Shown here in pieces: positions 9,718 to 37,744 of a DNA stretch of 64,000 bases; within the stretch, counting starts at the first letter, position 1; every line of letters begins with the position of its first letter. The position numbers were made by a program, and so were the translations under genes. Under the pieces are notes generated by a model. It was given only the letters and a program-made list of their open reading frames with translations. It was not told the origin of the DNA and searched no databases. The stretch lies in assembly GCA_023667185.1 (NCBI GenBank), contig JAMPAP010000002.1:150978-214977 (forward strand), written 5' to 3'. Source of the stretch: Lachnoclostridium sp. (GTDB lineage Bacteria; Bacteroidota; Bacteroidia; Bacteroidales; Muribaculaceae).

Positions 9718-9759
9718 TTTTCAAGTGCACAAATTTACTAATTCTGACTACTTCTTAAA

Positions 9760-16412: not shown

Positions 16413-17954
16413 ATGCCATTCGATCATACAAAACTATCAATTTATACAGTGCCTCAGCTCATTGAGTTTATGAAGTCAGGTGAAGTAACTTTTGAAGAAC
16501 TTCAGCAACTCGGTCTTCCATATTTCAAGCAGGATGAGATACGCAAATTCCTCGCTGAAAAGGATATATGGGAAGCCGCCAAAATGACTCAGGAAGGTAT
16601 CAACAACTATCTTGCCACTTATCCCAACGGCTTCTTCGTGGATGAGGCCGGTGCAGCAATGACTGCTGCAAAAGAAGAAGGAGTTTGGCAGTGGGCTTGC
16701 GACGAAGATAATGTTGCAGCCTATAAGCGCTACCTCAGCAAATATCCTACGGGCAAGTATGCTATTAAAGCCGAAATGAGAATTGAAGAACTTGAGGAGA
16801 TAGAGAAAAATCTGAAGGAGGAGATTTTCAATGATATGCGCGAGAACTTCTGGAACTATTCTTATATGAAGATGCGCCAGCTCTATAATCCCCAGCCTCT
16901 TACTCCAGAGCAGAAAGACTTCCTCGCTTCGCAGGATGATGCTTATTCACGATTTGTAGCTAACGGGTTGAAACTGACTCATCAGGATCTGATCGATAAT
17001 GGTGTAGTTCCTGAGGGCGTCACCCAGTCAGAAGTTTCTTCACCTGAGTTTACGATGCCTGCTACTAAAATTGAAGAACTCGGTATGTTCCCCAAGGATC
17101 GCACTGACATATTCTTCCTCGGTGTGCCTCGTTCGGGTAAGTCTTCAGTTTTATCGGGTGTGATTTATCAGCTTTGGCGCGATGGTTTTGCCGGCTATGA
17201 GCCTCAACTTGTAAATGGTGTAGACCCTTGTATGGCCTATTATCAGGGTCTTATCCGTGCGGTTGCCACCAAGAAGCCGCCGGTAGGTACGGCTACTGAT
17301 ACAGTGTCGTTCATGAAAATAGACCTTGTGCATGGTAAGCGTCGCAACAAGCTGACTATTGTCGAGATGGCAGGTGAAGCTTTTAAAAGAGCTGCCGAGC
17401 GTATTGCCAAAGGTAATGGAAATCAGGAAGAAGTGTGGAAGGAACTTGGCGCCGAACAGTGCTTAAGAAGCAAGAATCAGAAGATGCTCTTCTTTGTGCT
17501 TGACTATAGTGCTGTCAAGGGTATAAATGAGGCATGCTCCGCATTTGATCAGCTCGAGATCCTTGAATCAGCTCTCCGAACCTTGAGTACCGATGGCCCT
17601 GACCCCCAAAATCCTCGCAAGGGTTGTACAATGAGCCGTGTTGAAACTGTAGCCGTGCTTGTGACAAAAAGCGACCTTATGCAGCAGTCAACAGTGCAAG
17701 GACGTCTTGCCGAGGCAAGAGCCTATATGGAAGATAACTTCAAGAACTTCATGCGTGAACTGATGGATATGTCACGTGAATTTGGTTGCAACAGGGTTAA
17801 CGATTACCGTCCTTACTTCCTTACTTTCAGCCTCGGAAATTTCTACGTAGGAAATACTGTCGTATTTAATCCTGATGATTCCAAACGAATTATTGACTTT
17901 ATCCGTACGGCTACTCCATCAGAATCGATTGATCGTTTCCGCTTCTTTAACTAA
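16413..17954 (+). CDS. TRAFAC-type GTPase-like protein with a helical N-terminal region (two YxxxYPxG repeats)
   Basis: G1 FFLGVPRSGKSSVL (about 17120), G3-like LTIVEMAGEAF and G4 VLVTKSDL. It is a paralog of 28332..29456. Confidence 0.65.
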   Translation: MPFDHTKLSIYTVPQLIEFMKSGEVTFEELQQLGLPYFKQDEIRKFLAEKDIWEAAKMTQEGINNYLATYPNGFFVDEAGAAMTAAKEEGVWQWACDEDNVAAYKRYLSKYPTGKYAIKAEMRIEELEEIEKNLKEEIFNDMRENFWNYSYMKMRQLYNPQPLTPEQKDFLASQDDAYSRFVANGLKLTHQDLIDNGVVPEGVTQSEVSSPEFTMPATKIEELGMFPKDRTDIFFLGVPRSGKSSVLSGVIYQLWRDGFAGYEPQLVNGVDPCMAYYQGLIRAVATKKPPVGTATDTVSFMKIDLVHGKRRNKLTIVEMAGEAFKRAAERIAKGNGNQEEVWKELGAEQCLRSKNQKMLFFVLDYSAVKGINEACSAFDQLEILESALRTLSTDGPDPQNPRKGCTMSRVETVAVLVTKSDLMQQSTVQGRLAEARAYMEDNFKNFMRELMDMSREFGCNRVNDYRPYFLTFSLGNFYVGNTVVFNPDDSKRIIDFIRTATPSESIDRFRFFN

Positions 17955-25215: not shown

Positions 25216-25216
25216 C

Positions 25217-26443
25217 ATGAGATTACTATCAGAAGAGTCGTTCAGCCGCATTGAGCCGCTGATTGCCGATGATTATAAACGCACCCGCAGCCGCCTGGCG
25301 CTGTTGTTGTCCCCGCAAGACTGCGAAGTGTTTGCCCAGGTGGACCTGCTGCCCAACCGCGGCAAGTGGGTAGCCGATGTCCCCGGCCAGCTGATGCCCT
25401 ATTCCGAGGCTTCGGCCGCCGAGCGCGAGCAGATCGCAGCCTATCTCGAGGATAAGAAGCGCGCCATAGCCGCTGCCATCGGCGACAAGGTCCCCTACGT
25501 CAACGACCTTTTCCGTATCCCTGATGAAAACCAGATCTTCTGGTTCAAGGACAGCACCGGCAATGTCCGCGTAGTGCTGTCGCAGTGGGGATTCCGCCGC
25601 ATCAATGCTCCCGGCGACGTCGACGTGATAGAATTTCTCATCTCCCAGCCCCGCACAATGTCAATATGCGAGGTTGTGGCCAAGGGCGTATACTCTGACG
25701 GACAGCCTTACGCCTGCCAGCCCATCACGCTCTCGATTTTCGGCAATACATCTGAGGTAAAAACCGCTACTGATGGTACTTACTTCATAGGCAAAGTGCC
25801 CATGAACAAGGAATTCTCAATCACGGCCGATGGACAGATATACGACTTCGTGACAAGTGCTGACCGCGAAAGCTACGACTTCATTGTCAATCGCTACACC
25901 GGGTGGAGTGTCCGCGTCGTTGGTCAGAAAGGTGAGTCTGTAGCCAACTATCCGGTGAAGATCAACGGCCGCGACTGCATGACCGATGCTGACGGCATCA
26001 TCGCTGCCGATAATGTCATGATGACCGGCGATGACCGCCTGCAGGTAGAAGCTGAATATGGCGAACCGATGGAATACACCCTCTCTCCAGTCAGAGAAAA
26101 CAACGACTTCGAATACCGCGTTACTCTCCCTGTAAAAGAGGAAGTGAAGCCCCCGCTGCCCCCTGTGCCCCCCGAACCGCCGGTTAAGAAACCCGTCAGA
26201 GTGCATCTGCTCGACCTTGACGGCTCGCCCCTTGACTTCGTTGATGTATTCATTGACCAGCCCAACGGCACCACTGTCACCGCCACAACCGATGCCGACG
26301 GCTGGGCCACCTTCCCACGCGACACCTTTGTTGACAAGAAGAAGTCAAAGCTCCGCTTCAAGCTCACCAAGGAGTATCAGGAGCGTCGCCGCCAGATGAA
26401 AGAACAGCAAAAACAGCAACAAACTTCACAGAATCATGGCTAA
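25217..26443 (+). CDS. Cytoplasmic protein: N-domain shared with the S8 protease, CarboxypepD_reg-like beta-sandwich repeats, Pro-rich stretch, basic tail
   Basis: SAAEREQIAAYLEDKKRAIAAAI...VRVVLSQWGF resembles SGAEREKYERILDKTMRSIARSV...RVVITEWGM in 12841..15438. Repeats of the type TDADG.. occur. Pro-rich stretch: PPLPPVPPEPP. Confidence 0.65.
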   Translation: MRLLSEESFSRIEPLIADDYKRTRSRLALLLSPQDCEVFAQVDLLPNRGKWVADVPGQLMPYSEASAAEREQIAAYLEDKKRAIAAAIGDKVPYVNDLFRIPDENQIFWFKDSTGNVRVVLSQWGFRRINAPGDVDVIEFLISQPRTMSICEVVAKGVYSDGQPYACQPITLSIFGNTSEVKTATDGTYFIGKVPMNKEFSITADGQIYDFVTSADRESYDFIVNRYTGWSVRVVGQKGESVANYPVKINGRDCMTDADGIIAADNVMMTGDDRLQVEAEYGEPMEYTLSPVRENNDFEYRVTLPVKEEVKPPLPPVPPEPPVKKPVRVHLLDLDGSPLDFVDVFIDQPNGTTVTATTDADGWATFPRDTFVDKKKSKLRFKLTKEYQERRRQMKEQQKQQQTSQNHG

Positions 26444-28325
26444 ATCTCAGGATATCAACTATCAGAAAAAATTCAAGTTTGACCCCCGGCAGGACGAATA
26501 CGAATTCCAGCTCAAGAAGAAACGTAACTGGTGGTGGCTGCTGTTGCTGCTGTTACCCCTTCTGCTGCTGATCCGCTGCGAGCGCGACATGACCATAACC
26601 GTGGTCGACGATGATACCGACGAGCCTATCGAAGGAGCCCAGCTCAACTTAAGGTACACTTCCCATTATCTGCTCAAAGACTGGAAATTCCTCCTCAACG
26701 AGCCGGTGGCGCGCGAGGCTATTACTGATGTCGACGGAGAAGCACGTTTCGAGAAGCTCCCCTGCAGCGTCTACTCCTACATATTCTATTGCCTGAGCCG
26801 CGCTGCTGTCACGGCCTCCGACCCTTGCCATGAACCGGCCTCGATAATGCCGCTGGTTCACTACACATGGAATGCCGAAATCCGCCTCAAAAAGCTCCTC
26901 ACTGACGTCACCGTCACGGTGGTCGATGATGAGACCTCTGATCCAATCCCGGGGGCTGTGGTCACAGTAACCACCGGCGAAGTCACTGATTCCGTAACCA
27001 CAGATGCCGCCGGGCGTGTCAAGCTCGAAAAAGTGCCTCACTGTGGTATTATCGATGTGCTGAAAGGCTCGGCCTTCGGCTACGCTGATACCTTGCGGCG
27101 CAACCTGCCCGTGGCGCTGCTCGAAGACCCTGACAGCGCTTATCTGCGACTCCGTCCCGTCAAGGAGCGCTTCACATTCTTCGTCAAAGATGTGGAGACT
27201 CGCGAGCCGATCCCCGGTGCAACAGCTGTGGTGACCCTCGACGACCCCCGATCCGGCTATCGCGGCACTCATGAATACAAGACCAACGTCGATGGCCGCG
27301 GCATGGGATTCTACGACGAAGGGTTTATCCTCTCGCGCCTCAGCATAAAGGCCTCAAAAGTGCATTACAACGATTCCACCCTGAAGGGTGACTACACTAT
27401 CGGTGAATTTATAAAACTGCCTGACTCGCTTCGCACCGTATGGCTGCGCCCGATGCCATTTAACACTGAATTCCAGTGTATCGACTCCCTCTCGCGCAAG
27501 CCCATACCGGGAGTGGAAAATGTGATCACTGTCACTGACCCTGCCGGAAATACCGAGACCTATACCGAGATATCCAACCGCAATGGCAAATTCCCCGTCC
27601 ATGCCAAGGAAGGCTCCAAGATACATATCGACTCGCGTCTCCCCGGCGAGTACAAGGACAAGGCTACTGACATCCCCTCCTACGACGGAAAAGAGGAGAT
27701 CATCGAAATGATGCCTGACGTCACTCCGCTTGACGTAGACATGGTGATGGTGATTGACAACACCGGCTCAATGTCAGGAACCATAGGTATGGTAAAGCGC
27801 AATGCCTCGAATTTCTATTCTGACCTCAACGAGGAATGTGTGAAACATAAACTGTATATCAACAAGTTCCGCCTGAAGGTGATCTCGTACGGCGACCTGT
27901 CAGAAAAGCCGTTCAATGTATCACCGCTATATGAATTACCTGACCAGACTGCTGCTTACAAAGCATTCGTAAGCTCAATTATAGCCGCCGGAGGTGGCGA
28001 TGAGCCTGAGGATGGATTGCAGGCCGTGCGCGACGCCATGTCGACATCCTGGGTAAGCGGGCCGCAGCTCAAGCGCCATGTGATCGTCGTGTACACTGAT
28101 GCTCCGACCCATAGTATGTCATCCGGCGACTTCGACGCCATTAAATCCAAATGGATGTCAATGGATCCCGATTCGCGGCGCATGATCCTCTTTGCCCCGG
28201 CTAAAGATTCATGGAACACGCTGGCCACCTGGCCTCAGGTAAGTCACGAGACCGGTTCGCTCTCGTCAGTGCTCGCCGGAACCGGTTACGCCAACGTCCT
28301 CGAAAATATCTGTAAATCACTCTAA
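26436..28325 (+). CDS. N-terminally anchored periplasmic protein: four CarboxypepD_reg-like repeats plus a C-terminal von Willebrand factor A (vWA) domain
   Basis: TM segment KKKRNWWWLLLLLLPLLLLIRC. Repeats are ITVVDDDTDEPIEGAQ, VTVVDDETSDPIPGAV, FFVKDVETREPIPGAT and FQCIDSLSRKPIPGVE. The MIDAS-like motif is VMVIDNTGSMSG (about 27750), followed later by GGGDEPEDG and VVYTDAP. Confidence 0.8.
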   Translation: MAKSQDINYQKKFKFDPRQDEYEFQLKKKRNWWWLLLLLLPLLLLIRCERDMTITVVDDDTDEPIEGAQLNLRYTSHYLLKDWKFLLNEPVAREAITDVDGEARFEKLPCSVYSYIFYCLSRAAVTASDPCHEPASIMPLVHYTWNAEIRLKKLLTDVTVTVVDDETSDPIPGAVVTVTTGEVTDSVTTDAAGRVKLEKVPHCGIIDVLKGSAFGYADTLRRNLPVALLEDPDSAYLRLRPVKERFTFFVKDVETREPIPGATAVVTLDDPRSGYRGTHEYKTNVDGRGMGFYDEGFILSRLSIKASKVHYNDSTLKGDYTIGEFIKLPDSLRTVWLRPMPFNTEFQCIDSLSRKPIPGVENVITVTDPAGNTETYTEISNRNGKFPVHAKEGSKIHIDSRLPGEYKDKATDIPSYDGKEEIIEMMPDVTPLDVDMVMVIDNTGSMSGTIGMVKRNASNFYSDLNEECVKHKLYINKFRLKVISYGDLSEKPFNVSPLYELPDQTAAYKAFVSSIIAAGGGDEPEDGLQAVRDAMSTSWVSGPQLKRHVIVVYTDAPTHSMSSGDFDAIKSKWMSMDPDSRRMILFAPAKDSWNTLATWPQVSHETGSLSSVLAGTGYANVLENICKSL

Positions 28326-28331
28326 ATCGAT

Positions 28332-29456
28332 ATGCCTAAAACCAATATGTCACCCGTCAAGGAGCAGCTTCTCCGCCACATGAAGGAAGCCCCGCAATAC
28401 TACCATCCGGCACTGTTGCGCGACATCCTTGACGGCCGACTTGGGGATGCTGACGACTACGCCCTCATGCCCGGCCCGATGAAGGAGTTCATCGAGTCAG
28501 GGCAGAGGCTTACGTGGGAGGAGATCCTTGGGGCCGGAGTGCTTCCCCGGCCGCTTCCCCGCGAGGTGGTGACCGCTGATGAGGATATGCGCCTACCCGT
28601 CTACTCCGTTAAGCAGTATGAGGGCGGCATCGTAGCTCCGCATCGCACTGACGTGTTTATCCTCGGCGTGGCCGGTACAGGAAAATCCTCTCTTGCCTGT
28701 AGCCTTATCCGCCAGCTCGTGGATGTGTGTGAGTATGAGTATCAGCCTATGAAGTCCTCGCCCGATGATGCCAAGACTGCTGATTATTATAATGCTGTCA
28801 TGGACATAACTTTGCGGTTCAACAAGCCCGTGGCTCCTTCGCTCAACGATAACCTACTTTTCACCCAGCTTCGCGACACCCATTCTCGCCGCCGCCTTAC
28901 CATTATTGACGGTGACAGCAATGATATGTCAGATCTGGCACGGATCAACACCCCTGACGGAGTGATATTCAAGAAATACAATATCTACCGTATCATGGGC
29001 AACCGCAACTCCAAGATCCTGCTACTGCTCTTCAACTATCGTCAGATCAAGACCTCCGGCCATCGCACCATGTTCAACCAGTCAATGCTCATCGAGCGCT
29101 TCCTCAATGCCATGACATCTGACGGATCACCCGATAATCCCGAAAAGGATAGCTCGTTCAGCCGATTGAAAGGACTGGTATTTGTGTTTACAAAGTGCGA
29201 CAATCAGGATCCTGACGCGCTGAATGTCATCAACCGGTTTCTTGAAGAGCATCTCAAGACTGTGATGATGCGGCTCGACATCATCAACCGCCGTTTCGGC
29301 ATCAACAAGGAGAATGGCTACCGCCCGTATATCCTCCCCGTTACCCTCGGGCAGTTTACCATCGGAAACACGTTCATCTACAACCCGGAAACATCCATAA
29401 ACCTTGCCAAACTTATCACCTCGATTACACCTACGCAGTGGCCCTGGCAATGTTGA
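28332..29456 (+). CDS. TRAFAC-type GTPase-like protein, paralog of 16413..17954, with a degenerate G3
   Basis: G1 FILGVAGTGKSSLA (about 28666) and G4 FVFTKCDN. The G3 position reads LTIIDGDSND, with no DxxG glycine. The C-terminus GYRPYILPVTLGQFTIGNTFIYNPETS matches DYRPYFLTFSLGNFYVGNTVVFNPDDS in the paralog. Confidence 0.65.
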   Translation: MPKTNMSPVKEQLLRHMKEAPQYYHPALLRDILDGRLGDADDYALMPGPMKEFIESGQRLTWEEILGAGVLPRPLPREVVTADEDMRLPVYSVKQYEGGIVAPHRTDVFILGVAGTGKSSLACSLIRQLVDVCEYEYQPMKSSPDDAKTADYYNAVMDITLRFNKPVAPSLNDNLLFTQLRDTHSRRRLTIIDGDSNDMSDLARINTPDGVIFKKYNIYRIMGNRNSKILLLLFNYRQIKTSGHRTMFNQSMLIERFLNAMTSDGSPDNPEKDSSFSRLKGLVFVFTKCDNQDPDALNVINRFLEEHLKTVMMRLDIINRRFGINKENGYRPYILPVTLGQFTIGNTFIYNPETSINLAKLITSITPTQWPWQC

Positions 29457-29494: not shown

Positions 29495-30949
29495 ATGTTA
29501 GATATAATCGCTAAAAACCCGTTCCGCATCCTCGGTGTCTACTCTGACTCCGGCCTGCGTGACATCGTGGCCAATCGCAACCGCATCAATGCCTTTGCGA
29601 AAGTGGGGAAGCCCTGTACGTTTCCTACTGATCTTGCCTCACTCGCCGGACCGGTTGACCGCTCGCCCGAATCAGTGCAGGCTGCTGACTCGGCTCTTAC
29701 CATCGATGCTGACAAACTGAAATATGCTACCTTCTGGCTTATGAAGGGGGAGCCGGCTGACGCTGACGCCCTCCGTATGGCCTCGGAAGGAAACATAGCC
29801 GGTGCGCTCGCCTCGCTCGAGAGCCGCAGCTCCATGGCCTCGCTTCAGAACCTTGCAGTCATCAGCCTGATGCGCAACGATATCCGCAAGGCTTCAGTGG
29901 CTTTCGCAAATATGACTGACCGCTATGCCGCAAACTTCTACTCGGCTATCGGACTCAATGTCGGCGGCACGGAAACTCTCGTGGATACATACGTGAAGAC
30001 ACTCCTGGAGAATGACAGCACGATCGATGCGGCCGTGTTTACCGGTAATGATTATCCCGCCTCGTGGAATGCAACTGTAAAAGACGTGGCCGCTGTGCCC
30101 GTCATCTCCCAGCTTGAGGCGTTGATAGCCGAGGCCCGCAAGTCGAAGGACGGCAGCCCCGTAGAGCGTCTCAAAGCCGGTATCAACCTCTCCAAGAAGT
30201 CAAAACCGCTGCTGATGAAGCTGCGCAATATGCTGACCACCAAAGATCTCAAACTCGTCAATATATCTGACAAGGTAGGCAACGAGGTGCTTCAGTGCGG
30301 TATCGACTTCTATAACGATTCTGACGACATTTCTACTGCCAAGGATGCCCTCGCTCTTGCCAAGGATGCCCGCATGATAGTGCTCGGCTCCATGGCCCGC
30401 CAGCGTTGCGACGAGAATATCAAGACCCTCGAAAACAATGCCGCTCTTATCCCGTCAGCCGCTATTCAGGCCGACGTTAATGCTATCAGTGTAGCTCTCA
30501 ACGACTTCACCTCCCACAACCAGTCGTTTGACTCGCTCATCAGCCTCCTTGACCTTGTAGAGCCTCACCTGAAGAAGATGAAGGACACTGTAGGTGAAAA
30601 TGATCCTATCTATATCAACTGGTCAACAAACGTAGTGAATGTAGCTCTTAACCTGATCATCGACAAGGTTAATGCTGCACAAAATGTAGCAGGCAATGGC
30701 TCTAAACAGCTTCAGGACTATGTCACATATGTCGCAATGGCTCACGGTTTCATGAATCGTCTGTCGAAATACGCGATGGATCAGGCGTGCCGCAATCGAT
30801 TCAATACCAATAACAATACACTCAATGATCTTTATGCCCAAACCAAAAATGTCAATACCGGCGGCAGCAGCGATTCCGGCTTCAGCAGCTGCTTTATACA
30901 GATCCTGATTTATTTGGGTATCATGGCATTAGTGGGAATGTGTAGTTAA
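29495..30949 (+). CDS. Tail-anchored helical protein with a J-domain-like N-terminus that lacks the HPD motif
   Basis: NPFRILGVYSDSGLRDIVANRNRINAF resembles J-domain helix I/II (DYYEILGV...). No HPD tripeptide follows. C-terminal TM: FIQILIYLGIMALVGM. The family call is weak. Confidence 0.45.
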   Translation: MLDIIAKNPFRILGVYSDSGLRDIVANRNRINAFAKVGKPCTFPTDLASLAGPVDRSPESVQAADSALTIDADKLKYATFWLMKGEPADADALRMASEGNIAGALASLESRSSMASLQNLAVISLMRNDIRKASVAFANMTDRYAANFYSAIGLNVGGTETLVDTYVKTLLENDSTIDAAVFTGNDYPASWNATVKDVAAVPVISQLEALIAEARKSKDGSPVERLKAGINLSKKSKPLLMKLRNMLTTKDLKLVNISDKVGNEVLQCGIDFYNDSDDISTAKDALALAKDARMIVLGSMARQRCDENIKTLENNAALIPSAAIQADVNAISVALNDFTSHNQSFDSLISLLDLVEPHLKKMKDTVGENDPIYINWSTNVVNVALNLIIDKVNAAQNVAGNGSKQLQDYVTYVAMAHGFMNRLSKYAMDQACRNRFNTNNNTLNDLYAQTKNVNTGGSSDSGFSSCFIQILIYLGIMALVGMCS

Positions 30950-30969
30950 TAAAAAATTTAATACCAGAT

Positions 30970-31899
30970 ATGAAAAAATATTTTACAATGCTTGCTCTTG
31001 CAGCGGCAATGACAATGTCGGCACAGATGCCGGGTATCCCTTCAGAAAATCTCGCTGATTCGCTTAAGGCGGTTAATAAGGAGCTCGTTACCATTAACGA
31101 TGCTGTAAAAAAGAATGCCGAGGATATAAAGGCAGTCAATGAGTGCATTGACGCCACTGAAAAGGCTTTCGTTGCCAAAACTGACTCAATGACAGCCGAG
31201 GCCTCCGCGCTCGCGGCTCGCGTTGACGATATCAACTCTACTCTCAATGCCGCCATCGAGAAGGTGAACGAGACCCTCGGCACCGAGATCCGTACCACCA
31301 AGACTGAGGTGACAACGCGCACCGGCTCGCTGCTGACATACGGTATTATTGCGGCCATCGTGCTACTCCTTCTTGTTGTGGCTGCATATATGATACTTCG
31401 CAAACGTATCGGCGACGGCAGCGTGGATCTTGACACGGTCAAGGAGGCTAACAAGCAACTTCAGGAGCAGTCAGTCAGCCTTGACAATAAGCTTACTGAA
31501 GTGCTTCAGCAACAACTCGCCATGGCTGATACGCTGAAAAAGGCCACGGCAAACAGCTCTTCCGAGCCTGATCACTCTCTGGAGCTATCGATTGCCAACG
31601 AGCTCGCCCGCATAGAGCAGAACCTCGCTTTCATGGATCCCAAAACCAAGGGTGTGTCACAGCTTAAAAACCGTGCAGCGGCTATCAGCGAAGCTCTCAA
31701 AAAGAAGGGCTACGAGATTGTGCCGATGCTCGGCCAGGATTACAAGGAGGGCATGAACGTGGAGGCCACGATGGAGGAGGATGACACTCTCGAGCCCGGT
31801 AAGCAGATTATTCGCCGCGTTAGCCGTCCGGCCGTGCTCTACAAAGGATCTATGATACAGCCCGCTCAGGTAGTGGTGGCTTTCAACCCCGAAGACTAA
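30970..31899 (+). CDS. Membrane-spanning protein with a cytoplasmic GrpE-like C-terminal domain
   Basis: It has a signal peptide (MLALAAAMTMSAQ), a periplasmic coiled coil, and the TM segment LLTYGIIAAIVLLLLVVAAYMIL followed by RKR. The C-terminus KKGYEIVPMLGQDYKEGMNVEATMEEDDTLEPGKQIIRRVSRPAVLYKGSMIQPAQVVVA follows the GrpE beta-domain pattern (G.E.I...G...dp..h.A.......PG.V..V...GY...G..iRpA.V.V). Confidence 0.6.
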   Translation: MKKYFTMLALAAAMTMSAQMPGIPSENLADSLKAVNKELVTINDAVKKNAEDIKAVNECIDATEKAFVAKTDSMTAEASALAARVDDINSTLNAAIEKVNETLGTEIRTTKTEVTTRTGSLLTYGIIAAIVLLLLVVAAYMILRKRIGDGSVDLDTVKEANKQLQEQSVSLDNKLTEVLQQQLAMADTLKKATANSSSEPDHSLELSIANELARIEQNLAFMDPKTKGVSQLKNRAAAISEALKKKGYEIVPMLGQDYKEGMNVEATMEEDDTLEPGKQIIRRVSRPAVLYKGSMIQPAQVVVAFNPED

Positions 31900-31920
31900 A
31901 AAGAAATAAATTTACATTAT

Positions 31921-34422
31921 ATGGCATCACTTAAAATAATATACGGTATCGACCTCGGTACCACCAACTCGGCAATCACCCGATTCGAAAATGGTAAGGC
32001 CGTAGTAAAGAAAAATTCGCTCCAGAGTGACACCACACCATCTGTTGTGGCATATCGCGCCCAGGGTAAGGCCCCTTCGGTAGGCTCACGTGCAAAAACT
32101 CAGCTTGAGAAGGATCACGTGATGGCCTTCCGCAAGCCGGGCTATAAGTCAAACGTATTCCATGAGTTCAAGCGCGTGATGGGCACTGACCATAAGTTTT
32201 TCTCTTCAGCGCTTAATGCCGAGCTGACTCCTGAGGATCTTTCGGCCGAAGTGCTAAAAGAGCTGCGTAAGAATATCCTTGATGATGAGGTCTCATCGGC
32301 CGTAATCACCGTCCCTGCGATGTTTAATAACACTCAGAAGGATGCAACCAAGCGAGCTGCAAAACTCGCCGGATTTGACCATGTAGAGCTTATTCAGGAA
32401 CCGGTGGCCGCATCTGTGGCTTATGGTTTGTCCTCAAAGATGAAGAATGCTTACTGGGTGGTGTTTGACTTCGGTGGCGGTACATTTGACGCTGCTCTGA
32501 TGCGTATCACTGACGGTATCATGCAGGCTATAGACACTGCCGGTAACAACAAGCTCGGCGGCAAGGATATCGACAACGCTATAATCGAGCAGATTATGAT
32601 CCCATATTTCCGCTCCAACTATACAATTGAAAACATCCTGACCAACAATCGCAAGGCCTTTGCCGAGGTGTGGAAGGCAAAGGCTGAGGAGGCGAAGATT
32701 AACCTTTCGTTCAACTCATCGTATGAGCTCGAGACTGACCTCGGCGAGGATTACGGTACTGATGATCTCGGCGATGAGCTTGCCCTCTCGCTCACCATCA
32801 CTCAGGATGATCTGGAGCGTGTGGCTGCGCCCATCTATCAGAAAGCCATCGATATAACCAAGGAACTGCTTGCCCGCAACGGTATCAACGGCAAGGATCT
32901 CGGCGCTCTTATCCTCGTGGGCGGTCCTACACATTCGCCCATTGTGCGTCGTATGCTCCGCGAGCAGGTGACTCCGAATGTCGACACTTCTATTGACCCG
33001 ATGACCTGTGTGGCTGCCGGGGCTGCCATCTATGGCTCTACAATAGATGTCCCTGAGGAGATTGCTGACACCAAGCGTGACCGCTCCAAGGTGCAGCTCG
33101 CCGTGACTTATCAGAGTACCTCAGTCGAGACCGAGGAGTGGGTGTCAGTATCGCTGCTCCGTGACAAGTGTGACAACTACACCGAGCCTACGGTGAGAGT
33201 GGAATTTGCCCGCACTGACGGCCTGTTTACCTCGCCCGCCTCAGAAGTGGATGCAGCCGGCGACGTTGTATCGCTGATGCTCAAGCCGGATGCTACAAAT
33301 ACGTTTGATATCCGCTGCTACGACAGCCGCGGCACACGCCTCGAGTGTGAACCATCGCAGATCTCCATCATTCAGGGTGTGGCCGGATTAGGCGATGCTG
33401 TCATCCCTATGGCTCTCGGTATCGGTGCTACCAATAAGGATAATGTCGAAGTATTCATCCCCATTCAGGGTCTCGAGAAGAGCCGCAAGCTCCCCGCTTC
33501 GGGAAGTACTCGCTCTAACGGACTTCGCACACAGAAGGATATTCGCCCAGGTGTGGAGTCTGACACCGTCAGAATGTCTCTTTATCAGACCGAGGATGTG
33601 GGCGAAAACGTCAGAGTGCTCTATTGCCAGCGCATCTACGATGTACTGGTCACCGGCGAGGATGTACCCGTACTCGTGCCTGCCGAGAGTGTGATAAATA
33701 TCAACCTCCATGCCGAGCGCTCGGGCACAATCGATAAGTTTGAGATCGAGATTCCGAGCATCAACTTCACTCTCGACCTTACCGAGCGCATGAGCAAGAG
33801 CACCACATCAGCTCTCTCCGAAAGCTTCCTTGTGCATGAGATATATGATGCCAAGACCCGCGCCCGCCGCCTTGATAATGCCGCCTTGATCAACCGCATT
33901 GACCTTCTTGAGCAGCGCCTGAAGAATGCTGCCGGCGACCGCGATGCCCTCGATGGTATCTTTGCCGAGCTCCAGTCAATCGGTCGCGAGATCGATCATC
34001 AGATGTCGCTCGGCGAATGGGATCGCGAGGCTGCCCGACTTAAGTCAATGTTTGCCGAACTCTCAAACGATAACGTCAAGTATGGCAACGCTGATACCAC
34101 CGCTCTAATCGAGCAGATCAAGAAGGAGATGGACAAGGTGCTCGAAAGCCGTAACGTCCAGCTTGCCAAGGATCTTTACAGCCAGATGTGGAATCTCGAC
34201 TTCCGCATCGCTGAGGTGGAATTCTATATCGCATGGATACAGCAATGGAACAGCGAGTTTGCCCGCAAGAACTGGACTAATCCCTCGCGTGCCCGCCAGC
34301 TCGTTGACAATGGTCTGTCCATCATCCGCCAGGGCTCGCCTACGGCCGATGCTCTCCGCCCCATTGCCTTTGAGCTCAACGATATGCTACCCGAACACCA
34401 GAAAACCGATACTCTTCACTGA
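31921..34422 (+). CDS. Non-canonical Hsp70 (DnaK-family) ATPase, 833 aa
   Basis: IYGIDLGTTNSAI, VITVPAMFNNTQKDATKRAAKLAGF, VFDFGGGTFDAAL and LVGGPTHSPIVRRML. SBD-beta-like: IPMALGIGATN...VFIPI. An extra segment of about 115 aa lies between the NBD and SBD, and the helical C-terminus is long. Confidence 0.9.
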   Translation: MASLKIIYGIDLGTTNSAITRFENGKAVVKKNSLQSDTTPSVVAYRAQGKAPSVGSRAKTQLEKDHVMAFRKPGYKSNVFHEFKRVMGTDHKFFSSALNAELTPEDLSAEVLKELRKNILDDEVSSAVITVPAMFNNTQKDATKRAAKLAGFDHVELIQEPVAASVAYGLSSKMKNAYWVVFDFGGGTFDAALMRITDGIMQAIDTAGNNKLGGKDIDNAIIEQIMIPYFRSNYTIENILTNNRKAFAEVWKAKAEEAKINLSFNSSYELETDLGEDYGTDDLGDELALSLTITQDDLERVAAPIYQKAIDITKELLARNGINGKDLGALILVGGPTHSPIVRRMLREQVTPNVDTSIDPMTCVAAGAAIYGSTIDVPEEIADTKRDRSKVQLAVTYQSTSVETEEWVSVSLLRDKCDNYTEPTVRVEFARTDGLFTSPASEVDAAGDVVSLMLKPDATNTFDIRCYDSRGTRLECEPSQISIIQGVAGLGDAVIPMALGIGATNKDNVEVFIPIQGLEKSRKLPASGSTRSNGLRTQKDIRPGVESDTVRMSLYQTEDVGENVRVLYCQRIYDVLVTGEDVPVLVPAESVININLHAERSGTIDKFEIEIPSINFTLDLTERMSKSTTSALSESFLVHEIYDAKTRARRLDNAALINRIDLLEQRLKNAAGDRDALDGIFAELQSIGREIDHQMSLGEWDREAARLKSMFAELSNDNVKYGNADTTALIEQIKKEMDKVLESRNVQLAKDLYSQMWNLDFRIAEVEFYIAWIQQWNSEFARKNWTNPSRARQLVDNGLSIIRQGSPTADALRPIAFELNDMLPEHQKTDTLH

Positions 34423-36179
34423 TGATTTACAAAGCTAAAGATACAATACTTGACCGCTACACTGTCCTTTTCCCGATAAAGGAAGGAGCCTACGCCGAGT
34501 CGTATCGCGTGAAAGATGCTGCCGGCAAGCGGTATTTCTTCAAGCTGATTGACCGGTCCAGGCTTCAGCCCGAGCAGATCGATGACTATGGGCGTGTGCG
34601 CGAAATAGAGATCGTAAAGGATTTGGCTCACCCATGCCTCCCGGCTATGATCGAGTCGGGCGAGGTGACTATCGGCGGCAAGGAGTACGAATACCTTGTC
34701 AACAAATATGTGCCCTCCGAGACCCTTGCTGACCGCCTTCAGCGCGCGCAGACCCTCAAAATGTATGATATCAAGGCCATAGCTCGCGGAGTGCTCTCGG
34801 CTCTGACAGCGCTGCATGAGAATGACAATCCGGTGATCCACAATGAGGTCACGGCTCTGAATGTGCTGATGGATCTGTCGGTCGACGATCCGTCGGCTGT
34901 ATGCCTTATCGACTTTGGCTATGCCCGCCATACTGACGAGGCTCATGGCCAGTCGATCGAGGGGCTCAACTGGTTTTACCTCGCTCCGGAACGGTTTGAC
35001 GGCGCTTCAACGGTGCAGAGCGACCTCTATTCAGTAGGAGCTCTGCTATATCAGCTGACCTTCGGGCTGCTCCCCTGGTTCTGCGACCTCTCGACCATAG
35101 CTCCCGAGAAGCGTAAGCAGTATATCCTGCGCCAGAAGCACACCGCATTGCTGATGCCCGTAGTGGATAAGTTTGAGCTCGACGATCGTTTCCTCAACAT
35201 CCTCCGCAAAGCTCTTGCTGCTGATGTCGACGAGCGTTTTCAGTCGGCCCGGGAGTTTCTTGACGCCATCGAGGGAAAAGGCGAGGTGATAGCGCCGTCG
35301 CAGAATCCTGCTACGGCTGATGATCGCCGCGATGCTTTCTCAGCTTCGCGTCAGCGCTCCGGCAACGGGTTTGAGGATGTGGCAGGTATGACAGAGCTTA
35401 AGGAAATGCTCCGCAAGCGGGTGCTCAACATCCTGCGCGATACCGAGAAGGCAAAGCGTTACAAGCTTCAGATACCCAACGGTATACTCTTCTACGGCCC
35501 TCCCGGATGCGGCAAGTCGTTTCTTGCTGAGAAGTTTGCCGAGGAAGCCGGCTACAATTTCAAGCTCGTGAAGGCATCTGACCTGGCGTCTATCTATGTT
35601 CACGGCTCGCAGGAAAAGATAGGCCAGCTCTTTGACGAGGCACGCAAGAATGCGCCTACGATCCTCTGCTTCGACGAGTTTGACGCTCTGGTGCCGGCTC
35701 GCGGTACGCAGGGCGCCGAGCACCAGTCGGGCGAGGTCAACGAGTTTCTTACCCAGCTCAACAACTGCGGCGAGACCGGCGTCTTCGTCATCGCGTCGAC
35801 CAATCGTCCCGACATGATCGACCAGGCCGTGCTGCGTCGCGGCCGTATTGACCAGGTGATTTTCATCCCGGTGCCTGATGCCGAGAGTCGTGCCGCGATG
35901 TTTGAGCTCCATCTCAAGGGTCGCCCCTTCGACACCTCGATCGACTATTCAGCACTCGCTGCCTTGACTGAGAATTACGTGGCAAGTGACATAGCCTACG
36001 TGGTCAACGAGGCCGCAGCCCGCGCAGCGTTTGCTGACGAGAAGATCACTTCCGAGCATCTCGAAGAGGTAATCTCCGAGTGCCGCCCTTCGCTCAACGA
36101 GGGCGCGCTGCGCAACTACGACAAGCTACGCGAAAAAATGGAAGGCATCGTGGAGTCACGGCGCCGCATAGGTTTTTAA
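34422..36179 (+). CDS. Fusion of a Ser/Thr-kinase-like domain (atypical catalytic loop) and a classical-clade AAA+ ATPase
   Basis: Kinase-like motifs: YFFKLI (beta-3 Lys), IHNEVTALNVLMD in place of HRDLKPxN (34839..), DFGYA (34911..) and YLAPERF. AAA+ motifs: Walker A GPPGCGKS (about 35496), Walker B ILCFDEFD, sensor-1 IASTN and the Arg-finger region DQAVLRRGRID. Confidence 0.85.
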   Translation: MIYKAKDTILDRYTVLFPIKEGAYAESYRVKDAAGKRYFFKLIDRSRLQPEQIDDYGRVREIEIVKDLAHPCLPAMIESGEVTIGGKEYEYLVNKYVPSETLADRLQRAQTLKMYDIKAIARGVLSALTALHENDNPVIHNEVTALNVLMDLSVDDPSAVCLIDFGYARHTDEAHGQSIEGLNWFYLAPERFDGASTVQSDLYSVGALLYQLTFGLLPWFCDLSTIAPEKRKQYILRQKHTALLMPVVDKFELDDRFLNILRKALAADVDERFQSAREFLDAIEGKGEVIAPSQNPATADDRRDAFSASRQRSGNGFEDVAGMTELKEMLRKRVLNILRDTEKAKRYKLQIPNGILFYGPPGCGKSFLAEKFAEEAGYNFKLVKASDLASIYVHGSQEKIGQLFDEARKNAPTILCFDEFDALVPARGTQGAEHQSGEVNEFLTQLNNCGETGVFVIASTNRPDMIDQAVLRRGRIDQVIFIPVPDAESRAAMFELHLKGRPFDTSIDYSALAALTENYVASDIAYVVNEAAARAAFADEKITSEHLEEVISECRPSLNEGALRNYDKLREKMEGIVESRRRIGF

Positions 36180-36200: not shown

Positions 36201-36692
36201 ATGATAAAAGATAATTTGAATCTCGCTACAGCCTTCGCATTTATGGCATGCGACGGCGATATCTCGCCCGATGAGGTGAAGTTGATAAAGCAGATGAATG
36301 CTGACGGCATCATCCCGTGTGACGATGTCGACGATAAGCTCGAGCAGCTACTCGGGCAGCTCAACGCCCGCGGTCACGGCTTTATGAAAGACTATTTCCA
36401 GGCCGTCACTGACGCTGACCTTGACGCCGACGCGGCTCTCGCGCTACTCAAGATTGCCGTCGCCACCATCTATGCCGACGAAATCGTGGAATACTCCGAG
36501 GTGAAGTTTTTCCGAGCCGTGCGCTCGCATATCCTCTCAATGACCGATGAGCAGATCCTCGAGGCTATCCCCGAGGTTGAGGACTTTTGGCTGGAGTCTG
36601 ACGTCAAGTCGGCCGCTCCGGGCTACCTCGACCAGCAGTATATGGAAGCTGTCGAGCTACCGCAGTTTGACATCGCATCATTGAAGAAGTAA
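36201..36692 (+). CDS. TerB-like (tellurite-resistance TerB / DjlA N-domain type) protein
   Basis: Two copies of the TerB-type motif: FMACDGDISPDEVKLIKQM and IYADEIVEYSEVKFFRAV. All-helical, 163 aa. Confidence 0.65.
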   Translation: MIKDNLNLATAFAFMACDGDISPDEVKLIKQMNADGIIPCDDVDDKLEQLLGQLNARGHGFMKDYFQAVTDADLDADAALALLKIAVATIYADEIVEYSEVKFFRAVRSHILSMTDEQILEAIPEVEDFWLESDVKSAAPGYLDQQYMEAVELPQFDIASLKK

Positions 36693-37744
36693 TGGATAAG
36701 GTATTTATAAGCTACCGCCGCGATACGGGGCAGGATATCGCCCGCGGCCTCAACGACCGTCTCACCCAGCGCGGCATCAAGACCTTCTTTGACCGTGAGA
36801 CGCTCCATAACGGCAAGTTTAACCAGCAACTGCTCGGCGCCATCCGCGAGTGCCGCGACTTCATACTTGTGTTCTCCAAGGGCGCCCTTGACCGCTGCGT
36901 CAACCCTGACGACTGGGTGCGCACCGAGATCGAGTGTGCTCTGAAGCTGCATAAAAACATTGTGATAGTCTACACCATCCAGCCGCTCGAATTTCCGGCC
37001 AATCTCCCCGCGTCGCTCAACGAGCTGAAGTTTTACCAGGGCGTGTATCTCAACCATGAGTATTACAACGAGAGCATTGACCGCATCATCAACCACCTCG
37101 AGACCGGGCGTCAGCTCCATCGCAGCCGCGTCTTGACATGGGGATGCGTGGCTCTGGCCATTATCGTGACTGCCGCGTGGATGTACTTCGGCCATGAAAA
37201 GAACGCTGACTCTCAGCCCGCTGCCGTAGAGGATAGCGTGGCAGTGGTTGAGGAAGAGCAGATTGTAGTGGAGCAGCCTTCAAAGAAGAAGTCTACCCCC
37301 GTGCAGCAAGCCCCCTCAAAGCCCGTCGAAAAGTCTACCCCGGCCGTGGAGGAAAAGTCTCAGCCCGCAGCTACCCAGCCTGTAACCACCCAGCCTGTCG
37401 CCACTCAACCCGTAGCAACTCAGCCGCAGACACCCCGCAAGAGCGACGTGGAGCAGCTTGCCGAACGAGCTGCCTCGGGTGATGCCGCCGCAGCCTGTCA
37501 GATGGGTCTGCGGTTCCTTAACGGCGATGGCGTGTCAAAAAATTTCAAGACCGCCTTTGCATATTTCAACCAGTCGGCCTCGGCCGGTAACATCGATGGT
37601 ATGTACTGGCTCGGATACTGCTATCGCATGGGGCGCGGCACTTCCAAGGATTTAAATAAAGCCAAGCAATTGTGGAAACGCGCTGCCTCGGCGGGAAATG
37701 CCCGTGCCGCCCACGACCTCGAAGAAATCGAATCATTAATGTAA
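36692..37744 (+). CDS. TIR domain - TM - Pro/Thr/Gln-rich linker - Sel1 (SLR) repeat protein
   Basis: TIR: VFISYRRDTGQDIARGLNDRLTQRGIKTFFDRETLHNGKF...FILVFSKGAL...DWVRTEIECAL, with the conserved Glu present. TM: VLTWGCVALAIIVTAAWMYFG. Sel1: AACQMGLRFLNGDGVSKNFKTAFAYFNQSASAGNIDGMYWLGYCYRMGRGTSKDLNKAKQLWKRAASAGN. Confidence 0.85.
   Translation: MDKVFISYRRDTGQDIARGLNDRLTQRGIKTFFDRETLHNGKFNQQLLGAIRECRDFILVFSKGALDRCVNPDDWVRTEIECALKLHKNIVIVYTIQPLEFPANLPASLNELKFYQGVYLNHEYYNESIDRIINHLETGRQLHRSRVLTWGCVALAIIVTAAWMYFGHEKNADSQPAAVEDSVAVVEEEQIVVEQPSKKKSTPVQQAPSKPVEKSTPAVEEKSQPAATQPVTTQPVATQPVATQPQTPRKSDVEQLAERAASGDAAAACQMGLRFLNGDGVSKNFKTAFAYFNQSASAGNIDGMYWLGYCYRMGRGTSKDLNKAKQLWKRAASAGNARAAHDLEEIESLM
37370..37429 (+). 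repeat. Four tandem 15-nt coding units (ATQPV TTQPV ATQPV ATQPQ) in the TIR-Sel1 linker
   Basis: The four units gctacccagcctgta, accacccagcctgtc, gccactcaacccgta and gcaactcagccgcag were read directly. Confidence 0.85.

Follow-up and report, generated by a model that had tools for sequence, protein, structure and literature searches.

Specialized Hsp70 systems at the bacterial membrane

Proteins of the HSP70 and GrpE families are found together with DnaJ-fused proteins in membrane-proximal DO-GTPase conflict systems (Kaur, Burroughs, Iyer & Aravind, eLife 2020; PMC7159879). A specialized Hsp70 is also known in Escherichia coli, where the sporadically distributed HscC (Hsc62) has its own co-evolved J-partners, DjlB and DjlC, and probably acts with them at the membrane (PMC8215388).

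The window described here, meaning the whole stretch of 64,000 nucleotides that was analysed, carries a triad of genes at 29495-34422, all on the + strand and separated by 20-21 nt. The triad encodes a "J-like" helical adaptor of 484 aa (29495..30949), a membrane-spanning GrpE-like protein of 309 aa (30970..31899) and a divergent Hsp70 of 833 aa (31921..34422). An earlier note on this DNA had called them three consecutive genes, and the ORF ends match exactly.

The divergent Hsp70 and its GrpE-like partner

The 833-aa protein is matched by Pfam HSP70 with an E-value of 1e-68, over profile positions 2-375 of 599 only, and by DnaK structures with an E-value of 1e-53, which upholds its earlier description as a divergent Hsp70. 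Only its residues 7-374 align with E. coli DnaK in hhalign, and the best-scoring NCBIfam models, DnaK and HscA, both fall far under their cut-offs. Residues 8-375 make up a canonical nucleotide-binding domain (NBD) in which the catalytic D11, K84, E160, D183, T188 and D190 are invariant; judged by its sequence, the protein certainly has an Hsp70 NBD with intact ATPase residues. The equivalent of DnaK R167 is Glu in all 134 of 134 family members. Of the salt bridges known from DnaK, R56-E264 in the lower nucleotide cleft is lost and K55-E267 is retained. The C-terminal region of 460 aa is conserved within the family; no similarity to a DnaK-type substrate-binding domain could be detected in it, and its profile matched no Hsp70 in the PDB.

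The 309-aa protein begins with a signal-peptide-like N-terminus, followed by a coiled coil, about 100 aa long and predicted to be extracytoplasmic, and one strong transmembrane (TM) segment at about 125-143, with RKR after it (hydropathy). This arrangement would place residues 148-309 on the cytoplasmic side, a topology read solely from hydropathy and the positive-inside rule. Pfam GrpE matches the protein below the Pfam threshold (E 0.04, profile positions 51-164 of 165) and also matches 8 of 62 homologues, with a best E-value of 1.7e-5; the family profile found no GrpE among PDB sequences. The AF2 model of residues 148-309 (pLDDT 88.1) combines a long helix with two others and a beta domain, and in a Foldseek search of the PDB with this model ranks 1-13 were all GrpE, with E-values from 1.2e-5 to 9e-3. 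TM-scores of these matches are low (0.35-0.45) because the long helix is positioned differently. The modelled fold supports a GrpE-like C-terminal domain, for which sequence support is weak, and together with the predicted topology it agrees with the TM protein bearing a cytoplasmic GrpE-like domain that had been proposed earlier. The TM segment is kept in 80 of 82 homologues, although a soluble form of 132-134 aa exists in one subclade; the core mechanism can therefore do without the membrane tether.

The adaptor in the J position

The adaptor consists of a conserved N-terminal domain of 125 aa, with the motif NPYRILGV or NPFRILGV and then KVGK, a helical body, and the hydrophobic tail SCFIQILIYLGIMALVGMC (hydropathy). 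Its AF2 model (pLDDT 88.9) is all-helical with a repeat body, and the family of its N-terminal domain comprises 1836 clusters at 50% identity. The HPD motif is absent from the adaptor, and none of at least 145 homologues contains a Pfam domain. No J-domain signal was obtained by hhalign (probability 2%), the adaptor profile had no significant J-domain match in the PDB (best E 0.37), and Foldseek returned only TPR/Sel1-type helical repeats and no J domain. These searches give a J-domain identity no statistical backing. The earlier note had described a tail-anchored J-like protein, of which the hydrophobic C-terminal tail stands and the J domain is unsupported; of the two similarities it had proposed to look for, that to GrpE was recovered by fold and that to J domains by neither profile nor structure searches. 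Lacking both J-domain similarity and HPD, the N-terminal domain may not stimulate ATPase activity.

The adaptor is a recurrent member of the locus. Among about 260 J-like sequences, [KR]V[GN][KR] dominates the position of HPD, with EAEQ in its place in the Haliscomenobacter member, and 94 of 120 J-like proteins end in a C-terminal TM segment or CFI-box. The gene directly precedes the GrpE-like gene in 14 of 16 tabulated loci; the exceptions are one locus with the J-like gene after TerB (L016) and one with a gap of about 780 nt between the two (L015). Inner-membrane anchoring of both co-factors, as first suggested, fits the adaptor tail and the widely kept TM segment of the GrpE-like protein, but is not universal given the soluble subclade.

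A mobile five-gene cassette

The triad is not specific to the cluster in the window and forms the first part of a mobile unit of five genes that is conserved in gut Bacteroidota. The cassette runs in the order of one to three J-like paralogues, GrpE-like, Hsp70, kinase-like/AAA+ and TerB, and is carried by 15 Bacteroidales genomes and by a plasmid of Haliscomenobacter (H. hydrossis). Its distribution is patchy, with occurrences on this plasmid and next to a relaxase; it was not found in phage genomes, a result neutral to a role in defence.

The fourth gene (34422..36179, + strand), whose start shares one base with the Hsp70 stop, encodes a kinase-like/AAA+ fusion (Pfam Pkinase, E 2e-26; Pfam AAA, E 6e-34). 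In the kinase-like domain the HRD motif is read as H-N-E, and the domain is probably a pseudokinase or an atypical kinase. The AAA+ half is classical and of FtsH/Cdc48 type, with NCBIfam CDC48/FtsH matches. In PADLOC the fusion matches mad6/PD-T4-6 kinases and the IetA ATPase with scores well under the family cut-offs; the J-like, GrpE-like, Hsp70 and TerB proteins have no PADLOC match. The fusion gene is present in most cassettes and missing from two (L017 and L022). The fifth gene (36201..36692, + strand) encodes a stand-alone TerB-domain protein of 163 aa. Pfam TerB matches the window copy with an E-value of 0.0024 and 11 of 13 orthologues with a best E-value of 3.5e-7, so that the TerB protein noted earlier two genes downstream of the triad is confirmed, now as a cassette member. 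Its motifs are duplicated (ACDGDI..EE / ADN.IEYSE), its TerB-fold PDB matches 2ou3 and 2h5n are both weak, and the Haliscomenobacter orthologue carries the RefSeq name "TerB family".

The genes around the cassette in the window are variable. Directly downstream, 36692..37744 (+ strand) encodes a TIR protein with Sel1 repeats (Pfam TIR_2, E 2e-12; Pfam Sel1, E 3e-17; TIR effectors in PADLOC) and a TM segment at 147-165 (hydropathy). None of the other loci examined has a homologue of this gene after its cassette, and it is a variable, effector-like addition to the cassette in this genome. Upstream are a P-loop protein with a degenerate Walker B (28332..29456, + strand), which accompanies the cassette only in its closest relatives (L004 and L022), and a membrane-anchored protein with CarboxypepD_reg/prealbumin-like and vWA domains by Pfam (26436..28325, + strand). 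The latter has an N-terminal WWWLLLLLL segment, and its gene, with orthologues in the same two loci, is a lineage-specific upstream extension. The P-loop protein is a paralogue, at 27% identity, of a DO-GTPase-like P-loop protein (16413..17954, + strand; Pfam DO-GTPase2, E 0.0027) with Walker A GVPRSGKS, Walker B IVEMAGE (ExxG) and TKSD motifs. Most cassettes occur without a GTPase nearby. An S8 subtilase of the IetS class is located 19 kb upstream in the window.

This distribution bears directly on the earlier view that the triad is dedicated to the cluster, as an assembly or quality-control chaperone for its envelope-spanning complexes (vWA, secreted paralogues, SrfB/SrfC, subtilase) with co-factors at the inner membrane. 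Many neighbours in the window do encode membrane or secreted proteins, the operon is tightly packed, and HscC with DjlB and DjlC probably acts on membrane proteins in E. coli (PMC8215388). However, the cassette recurs in more than 15 genomes with unrelated flanks, and the vWA, GTPase-like and TIR genes flanking it here do not extend beyond its closest relatives. Flanks that differ wholly in most genomes mean that the client cannot be the specific cluster of the window, and the constant partners are the kinase-like AAA+ and TerB proteins rather than envelope proteins. The claim of dedication to the cluster fails, and the chaperone reading as a whole is unlikely. BREX, restriction-modification, SIR2 and TIR genes are among the variable flanks, with brxL-pglZ beside the cassette in two loci that belong to different Bacteroidota classes; other neighbours are 5mC restriction, N6-methyltransferase/Eco57I, SLFN_AlbA_2, DUF3800 and relaxase genes. 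This company of BREX, restriction-modification, SIR2, SLFN/AlbA, TIR and relaxase genes places the cassette in phage-defence islands, an association read from about eight inspected loci and not from a statistical enrichment. It is more in keeping with a module for conflict or defence than with a chaperone that assembles membrane complexes.

The same neighbours weigh on a second, similarly improbable explanation, in which a specialized Hsp70 and TerB would safeguard or restore proteins of the inner membrane during envelope, oxidative or metal stress, in parallel with HscC-DjlB/DjlC (Cd2+, UV) and the Ter tellurite-resistance proteins. The constancy of TerB in the cassette, the hydrophobic C-terminal tail of the adaptors and the Cd2+ and UV resistance conferred by HscC with membrane-associated J-proteins (PMC8215388) agree with such a role, but the patchy distribution, the plasmid location and the adjacent relaxase do not, and effector-like genes that change from locus to locus (TIR), together with BREX adjacency, are marks of conflict systems and not of stress regulons. 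Least probable is an actin-fold ATPase that polymerizes or scaffolds a higher-order assembly outside any chaperone cycle, with a "J-like" protein that is only a membrane-anchored scaffold of helical repeats and has no relation to J-proteins: the undetectable substrate-binding domain, the failed J-domain tests and the multimeric HSP70 and tubulin assemblies proposed as effectors by Kaur et al. (PMC7159879) speak for it, but the Hsp70 catalytic residues are invariant, and strict co-inheritance of the GrpE-fold partner, even where it is reduced to a minimal soluble domain, is easiest to understand if nucleotide exchange in an Hsp70-type cycle is important.

A proposed membrane-proximal switch

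With a probability of roughly one half, the cassette works close to the membrane as an ATP-driven switch in a conflict system, probably an anti-phage one. The Hsp70 ATPase cycle looks like it has been reused as such a switch rather than kept as a housekeeping chaperone. In the proposed arrangement, the GrpE-like protein would dimerize through long helices running straight on from the TM segment, and the dimer would speed ADP release from the cassette Hsp70 at the membrane, while the extracytoplasmic coiled coil may couple events in the envelope to exchange activity. The N-terminal domain of the J-like protein would recruit Hsp70 to the membrane or to clients. J-like proteins may contact the NBD surface where the otherwise universally conserved Arg (DnaK R167) is Glu; this replacement and the basic [KR]V[GN][KR] at the HPD position point to a possible Hsp70/J-like interface. 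The unusual C-terminal region of the Hsp70 may bind a client or effector, and the AAA+ module and TerB could add a second step of remodelling or thresholding. The output would be the switching on of variable effectors, in the window the membrane protein with the TIR domain and Sel1 repeats and, perhaps, the vWA/GTPase module upstream of the cassette.

Comparison with known systems

The housekeeping DnaK-DnaJ-GrpE set shares with the cassette the chemistry of the Hsp70 NBD and a GrpE with a long helix, four-helix-bundle helices and a beta domain; its co-factors are soluble, in contrast to those of the cassette, which also has Glu at the R167 equivalent and no HPD. The several J-like paralogues per cassette recall several J-proteins serving one Hsp70. 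HscC with DjlB and DjlC is likewise a non-housekeeping Hsp70 with dedicated partners and sporadic occurrence, and DjlC is tail-anchored. DjlB and DjlC differ in carrying true J domains with HPD, and HscC in keeping a DnaK-like substrate-binding domain and in its exchange factor being thought unneeded, whereas the cassette Hsp70 is always paired with a GrpE-like protein. DjlA (TM, TerB-like domain and J domain) also brings a TerB-type domain alongside an Hsp70 co-factor at the inner membrane, although in the cassette TerB is a separate protein. The AAA+ half of the fusion resembles IetA of IetAS, and its kinase half is similar to PD-T4-6 and to MAD6 of MADS, but the catalytic loop of the cassette kinase is degenerate, and the fusion and the Hsp70 partnership are not found in those systems.

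The closest precedent is the HSP70-GrpE-DnaJ theme of DO-GTPase conflict systems. This theme is reported mainly from actinobacteria and firmicutes, and has GAP1 and genuine DnaJ domains joined to FNIII proteins (PMC7159879), whereas the present cassette is from Bacteroidota, no GAP1 is detectable, the protein in the J position has neither HPD nor any J-domain signal, and the GrpE-like protein is transmembrane. The new C-terminal region of the Hsp70 and the constant kinase-like/AAA+ and TerB partners also set the cassette apart. The likeness lies in the overall design: GAP1-N2 DO-GTPase systems place a dedicated Hsp70 and GrpE within a membrane-proximal, multi-gene system that also has vWA proteins, kinases, GTPase pairs and variable effectors (PMC7159879), and the window has two paralogous DO-GTPase-like P-loop proteins, one with ExxG and TKSD.

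A portable five-gene cassette

The three consecutive genes read by the earlier note as a membrane-tethered chaperone set are present as + strand open reading frames at exactly 29495-30949 (J-like, 484 aa), 30970-31899 (GrpE-like, 309 aa) and 31921-34422 (Hsp70, 833 aa). They are separated by gaps of 20-21 nt and embedded in a long series of + strand genes. A kinase-like/AAA+ gene (34422-36179) follows, overlapping the Hsp70 stop codon by one base, and the TerB-type protein that the same note placed two genes downstream of the Hsp70 is encoded at 36201-36692.

Related loci were collected with a GrpE-like profile from 15 species-level genomes of Prevotellaceae, Bacteroides, Muribaculaceae, Parabacteroides, Odoribacter, Butyricimonas and Porphyromonadaceae, and contigs encoding homologues were also looked up. 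Gene order is constant: one to three paralogous J-like genes are followed by those for the GrpE-like protein, Hsp70, the kinase-like/AAA+ protein (missing from loci L017 and L022) and TerB. The five-gene cassette is also found on plasmid pHALHY02 of Haliscomenobacter hydrossis DSM 1100 (class Saprospiria), where RefSeq names the J-like and GrpE-like products 'CFI-box-CTERM domain-containing protein' and 'septum formation initiator', and the remaining three 'Hsp70 family protein', 'AAA family ATPase' and 'TerB family tellurite resistance protein'. It was not found in phage genomes.

The flanks of the cassette differ wholly from locus to locus. The BREX genes brxL and pglZ adjoin it in convergent orientation in a Muribaculaceae MAG (locus L019, 16782-21037) and on the H. 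hydrossis plasmid (locus L027, 15774-20161), two loci from different classes of Bacteroidota. Elsewhere the flanks include SIR2, a 5mC-restriction component, N6-methyltransferase/Eco57I, SLFN_AlbA_2, DUF3800, WYL, ADP-ribosylglycohydrolase and ART/NADAR genes, and a relaxase. The upstream set of the window, comprising three secreted paralogues, a vWA protein and a 374-aa P-loop protein, recurs only in its closest relatives, L004 and L022, and the TIR-TM-Sel1 gene (36692-37744) lies downstream of the cassette in no other locus examined. Because the order is constant while the flanks are unrelated, the triad is best described as the core of a portable cassette with variable attached genes. Its supposed dedication to the surrounding cluster is contradicted by this recurrence of all five genes in unrelated settings. 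A sigma-70 promoter and terminator scan, which does not cover Bacteroidota promoters, gave counts close to the shuffled expectation.

The MAG under which the exact GrpE-like and Hsp70 proteins are deposited bears the label 'Lachnoclostridium sp.', and that of L004, the closest relative, reads 'uncultured Staphylococcus sp.'. Every other relative belongs to the Bacteroidota, whose signal peptides those of the window appear to resemble. Both labels are probably binning errors.

Membrane topology and the GrpE-like protein

A hydropathy scan of the triad located one hydrophobic segment in the J-like protein at its extreme C-terminus (residues 465-483), the tail that had been proposed for it, and no convincing transmembrane (TM) segment in the Hsp70. 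The GrpE-like protein carries a signal-peptide-like N-terminal segment, MKKYFTMLALAAAMTMSAQ, and a strong TM segment at about residues 125-143, followed by RKR. By the positive-inside rule, residues 148-309 are predicted to be cytoplasmic and residues 20-120, a coiled coil, extracytoplasmic. The GrpE-like domain thus falls on the cytoplasmic side of the predicted TM segment, as the earlier note had supposed.

By sequence, the GrpE-like protein resembles GrpE weakly. Its Pfam GrpE (PF01025) match covers profile positions 51-164 of 165 but, at 14.0 bits (E 0.04), stays under the cut-off of 25.8, and NCBIfam GrpE gave an E-value of 0.005; among 62 homologues, eight had an E-value below 0.01 with Pfam GrpE, the best being 1.7e-5. 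When the C-terminal part was searched as a family profile, no PDB sequence matched, and coiled-coil matches dominated the PDB search with the whole protein. An AlphaFold2 model of residues 148-309, made with 23 homologues (mean pLDDT 88.1), comprises in its own numbering a 43-residue helix (4-46), two shorter helices (56-73 and 82-98) and a six-stranded beta domain. In a Foldseek search of the PDB with this model, ranks 1-13 were all GrpE, with E-values of 1.2e-5 to 9e-3, probabilities of 0.75-1.0 and 144-172 aligned columns, and the next match had an E-value of 0.14. The structures matched are those of E. coli, Geobacillus, Thermus, M. tuberculosis and human GrpEL1. TM-scores were modest (0.35-0.45), as expected since the long helix of the monomer model is oriented differently. 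The predicted structure therefore argues strongly for a GrpE-like fold in the C-terminal domain, sequence support being weak, and the identity first proposed for the 309-aa protein is borne out by fold rather than by profile score. We infer a nucleotide-exchange activity for it.

Membrane anchoring of the GrpE-like protein is the usual state of the family, a TM segment being present in 80 of 82 homologues. A soluble subclade of 132-134 aa nevertheless exists (L019 9595-9996, L025 9578-9982 and L026 8545-8943, all in related loci), which lacks signal peptide, coiled coil and TM segment and consists of the last helices and the beta domain. These minimal forms accompany Hsp70s of 848-849 aa. The tether proposed in the earlier note is accordingly right for most members but not obligatory.

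An Hsp70 with a divergent C-terminal region

The divergent 833-aa Hsp70 was correctly recognised from the outset. Residues 8-375 match Pfam HSP70 (PF00012) with an E-value of 1e-68, over profile positions 2-375 of 599 only, and DnaK structures match the same residues with an E-value of 1e-53. The catalytic residues D11, K84, E160, D183, T188 and D190, equivalent to DnaK D8, K70, E171, D194, T199 and D201, are invariant in 27 family members of 47-82% identity.

The likeness to DnaK ends with the nucleotide-binding domain. When the Hsp70 family was aligned by hhalign with full-length E. coli DnaK (hand-entered sequence), only that domain aligned (7-374 with 4-382), and a profile of residues 377-833 found no Hsp70 among PDB sequences. 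The C-terminal 460 residues are thus without a DnaK-type substrate-binding domain detectable by these sequence comparisons; they are well conserved inside the family. The position of DnaK R167 is occupied by Glu in all 134 family sequences (xxELIQEP). In DnaK this arginine is the contact of Asp35 in the HPD motif of the J domain (DnaK-J-domain structure 5NRO, cited in PMC8215388). Of the two salt bridges that span the nucleotide cleft of DnaK, K55-E267 is kept and R56-E264 is lost.

The J-like protein family

The conserved part of the J-like protein is its N-terminal 125 residues, with N8, P9, R11, G14, N27, V37, D46, R56, F80 and W81 invariant. This domain belongs to a family of 1836 clusters at 50% identity (E ≤ 0.001, profile against a representative library); it is mostly N-terminal in proteins of 140-1000 aa, and in some internal, after Sel1 repeats. 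The proteins end in a hydrophobic tail or a CFI-box-CTERM domain (NCBIfam NF041770) in 94 of 120 homologues. The tail of the window protein (30890-30949), SSCFIQILIYLG, itself contains 'CFI', and a family subset (L027 8235-9950 and the single homologous proteins P0182 and P0186) ends in a 69-residue CFI-box-CTERM domain, GCYIATMAYGD...LRQFRD, with an E-value of about 1e-24.

The assignment of the protein to the J-domain class found no support in any search. At least 145 J-like homologues lack a Pfam domain of any kind; Pfam DnaJ (PF00226) in particular matched neither the window protein nor 23 N-terminal domains nor 145 homologues, and Pfam returned nothing relevant for ten long members of the domain family. 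The best PDB match of the family profile was the pseudo-J domain 2cug, at an E-value of 0.37 over 26 residues. Seven bona fide J domains were entered by hand and confirmed individually with Pfam (E-values of up to 9e-31); the hhalign comparison with them gave a probability of 2%, its 18 columns being confined to 'PFRILGV' and the beginning of helix II. The full model is all-helical (pLDDT 88.9), and its Foldseek search of the PDB and BFVD, dominated by the repeat body, returned TPR/Sel1-like repeats only. Its helices lie at 9-12, 21-36, 48-51, 58-67 and 71-79; the first two and the loop after them roughly parallel J-domain helices I, II and the HPD loop, while helix III is broken and mismatched.

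The HPD motif is absent. By the spacing of ILGV, its place is taken by K36-V37-G38-K39, and across about 260 sequences this position reads KVGK, KVGR, RVGK, KVNK and similar, never HPD; a distant Haliscomenobacter member has EAEQ. The 'J-like' label rests on a short motif, its spacing and the genomic position, and homology to J domains, which is unproven, appears to us somewhat doubtful. The genomic context makes it plausible that the protein is an adaptor recruiting the Hsp70.

The kinase-like/AAA+ and TerB proteins

In the kinase-like domain (34422-36179), the VAIK Lys, the αC Glu and the DFG motif are retained. Throughout the family, however, the catalytic loop has H-N-E-V-T instead of H-R-D-L-K (H-L-G in one member), and on account of this replacement the domain is probably an atypical kinase or a pseudokinase. 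The AAA+ module to which it is fused is classical, and its Walker A (GPPGCGKS), Walker B (DEFD) and arginine fingers are intact. The kinase-like domain probably provides this active module with a sensor or scaffold. In PADLOC, the kinase half resembles PD-T4-6/MAD6 kinases and the AAA+ half IetA. IetAS was rejected as an identity for the cassette, as the likeness is confined to the AAA+ half and the score is below cut-off.

The window TerB protein scores 18.6 bits against a Pfam cut-off of 24.4, and 11 of 13 orthologues match Pfam TerB (PF05099; best 3.5e-7). It contains duplicated acidic motifs, ACDGDIspDE and YADEIVEYSE, of the metal-binding type [AS]DG-x-[IL]-x3-E, and PDB matches to the TerB fold are weak. 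The orthologue matches and the duplicated motifs together support the TerB assignment.

The surrounding island

The cassette lies in an island of about 6.5-38.4 kb, between a TPR/His-kinase gene and dxs. The + strand gene run opens with SrfB (PF07520, E 4e-160) and SrfC-type 'Virul_Fac' (PF10139, E 2e-99) genes at 6565-12813; no SrfA gene is recognisable upstream of them, and the TIR-Sel1 protein (36692-37744) has a weak NCBIfam SrfA_fam match (E 1.8e-4). An S8 subtilase follows (12841-15438, 865 aa), with one TM helix at 260-278, and after it a 4-TM protein of 292 aa (15483-16361). At 17973-21086 and 21095-21985, proteins of 1037 and 296 aa, both without a Pfam match, have in common a C-terminal domain of 108 residues (56% identity) and, less strongly, a region ahead of their single TM helices. 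The interval 22802-26443 is occupied by a row of three genes for proteins of about 400 aa, the first two with signal peptides and the third ending in an MG4/CarboxypepD_reg-like beta domain; this trio is also upstream of the cassette in L004 and L022.

Two P-loop paralogues with 27% identity resemble an active and inactive GTPase pair by their motifs. The 513-aa protein (16413-17954) has a Walker A (GVPRSGKS, GxxxxGKS), a Walker B (IVEMAGE, ExxG) and TKSD, and matches Pfam DO-GTPase2 below cut-off (E 0.0027), while the 374-aa protein (28332-29456) has a degenerate Walker B (IIDGDS). A faint Pfam YfiO/TPR-like repeat, 'Y..YP.G.Y', occurs at the N-terminus of the 513-aa protein (residues 48-133), and the same repeat is found in the C-terminal extensions of long J-like paralogues (L001, L019, L024 and L026).

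A candidate Hsp70-based switch

Domain identities, membrane segments, co-inheritance and gene neighbourhoods are the observations on which a functional reading can be built; the interactions and biological roles that follow are all inferred. The best-supported reading, which we hold at a probability of about 0.5, is that a conflict or defence system uses a membrane-proximal Hsp70 ATPase cycle as its regulated switch. J-like adaptors, with their several paralogues, variable helical bodies and hydrophobic C-terminal tail, would position the Hsp70, and a GrpE-like dimer on stalk helices rising from the membrane would reset it by nucleotide exchange. The Hsp70 may hold a client in its new C-terminal region. 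Further control could come from the AAA+ module and TerB, and the response would be executed by variable effectors, in the window genome TIR-Sel1.

A more specific, joint form of this proposal, which we think unlikely as a whole, makes the GrpE-like protein an outside-in transducer gating a dedicated Hsp70 that is recruited via a charge-reversed, J-derived interface. The stalk helices of soluble GrpE are a thermosensor. Here, the extracytoplasmic coiled coil would sense phage adsorption, DNA injection or peptidoglycan damage, and the signal would run via the TM helix into the GrpE stalk helices, gating nucleotide exchange on the Hsp70. The adaptors, J-derived and HPD-less, would recruit the Hsp70, its R167-equivalent Glu facing their basic [KR]V[GN][KR] loop, and abortive-infection effectors, TIR-Sel1 for example, would next be released or activated by the Hsp70. 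If true, outside-in signalling would arise from a chaperone cycle, in a new class of Hsp70-based bacterial immunity.

Three rival explanations give the same genes other work. The cassette might be a dedicated envelope-assembly chaperone, for which we see a similarly small chance as for the transducer, and a membrane or metal stress module is just as improbable. A polymerising, non-chaperone Hsp70 is slightly less probable still.

The cassette is widespread and horizontally mobile, with an Hsp70 whose putative client-binding region is new and which is always paired with a GrpE-fold, usually membrane-spanning protein, and it brings a very large uncharacterised adaptor family of about 1,800 sequence clusters. 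If it works as proposed here, bacterial conflict systems would have taken over an Hsp70/exchange-factor cycle as a switch, a tractable system would be available for an Hsp70 driven without a canonical HPD J-domain, and a candidate defence system would be added for the Bacteroidota, which are dominant in gut microbiomes.

Relation to known systems

Hsp70 systems are, in the textbook view, soluble proteostasis machines. In the literature searched, no description was found of the five-gene cassette, the HPD-less adaptor family, a transmembrane GrpE with an extracytoplasmic coiled coil, or a universal Arg-to-Glu change at the J-contact position, and the sole precedent found for Hsp70/GrpE/TerB defence systems is Kaur et al. 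2020. The two P-loop paralogues of the island recall the DO-GTPase conflict systems of that study (PMC7159879). In one theme of these systems, vWA proteins and kinases occur near the membrane together with HSP70, GrpE and DnaJ-fused proteins. GAP1 is a defining component of them. No GAP1 was detected in the window, the 1037-aa protein downstream of the GTPase-like gene being without a Pfam match at E < 0.1, and most cassettes elsewhere have no BLAST-detectable GTPase-like gene. The DO-GTPase/GAP1 system was rejected as an identity for the cassette on both counts.

According to a review of bacterial Hsp70s (PMC8215388), neither HscA nor HscC requires an exchange factor. HscC-DjlB/DjlC is a known case of a specialised Hsp70 with J-proteins associated with the membrane, and for dedicated Hsp70-GrpE modules of conflict systems there is published computational precedent.
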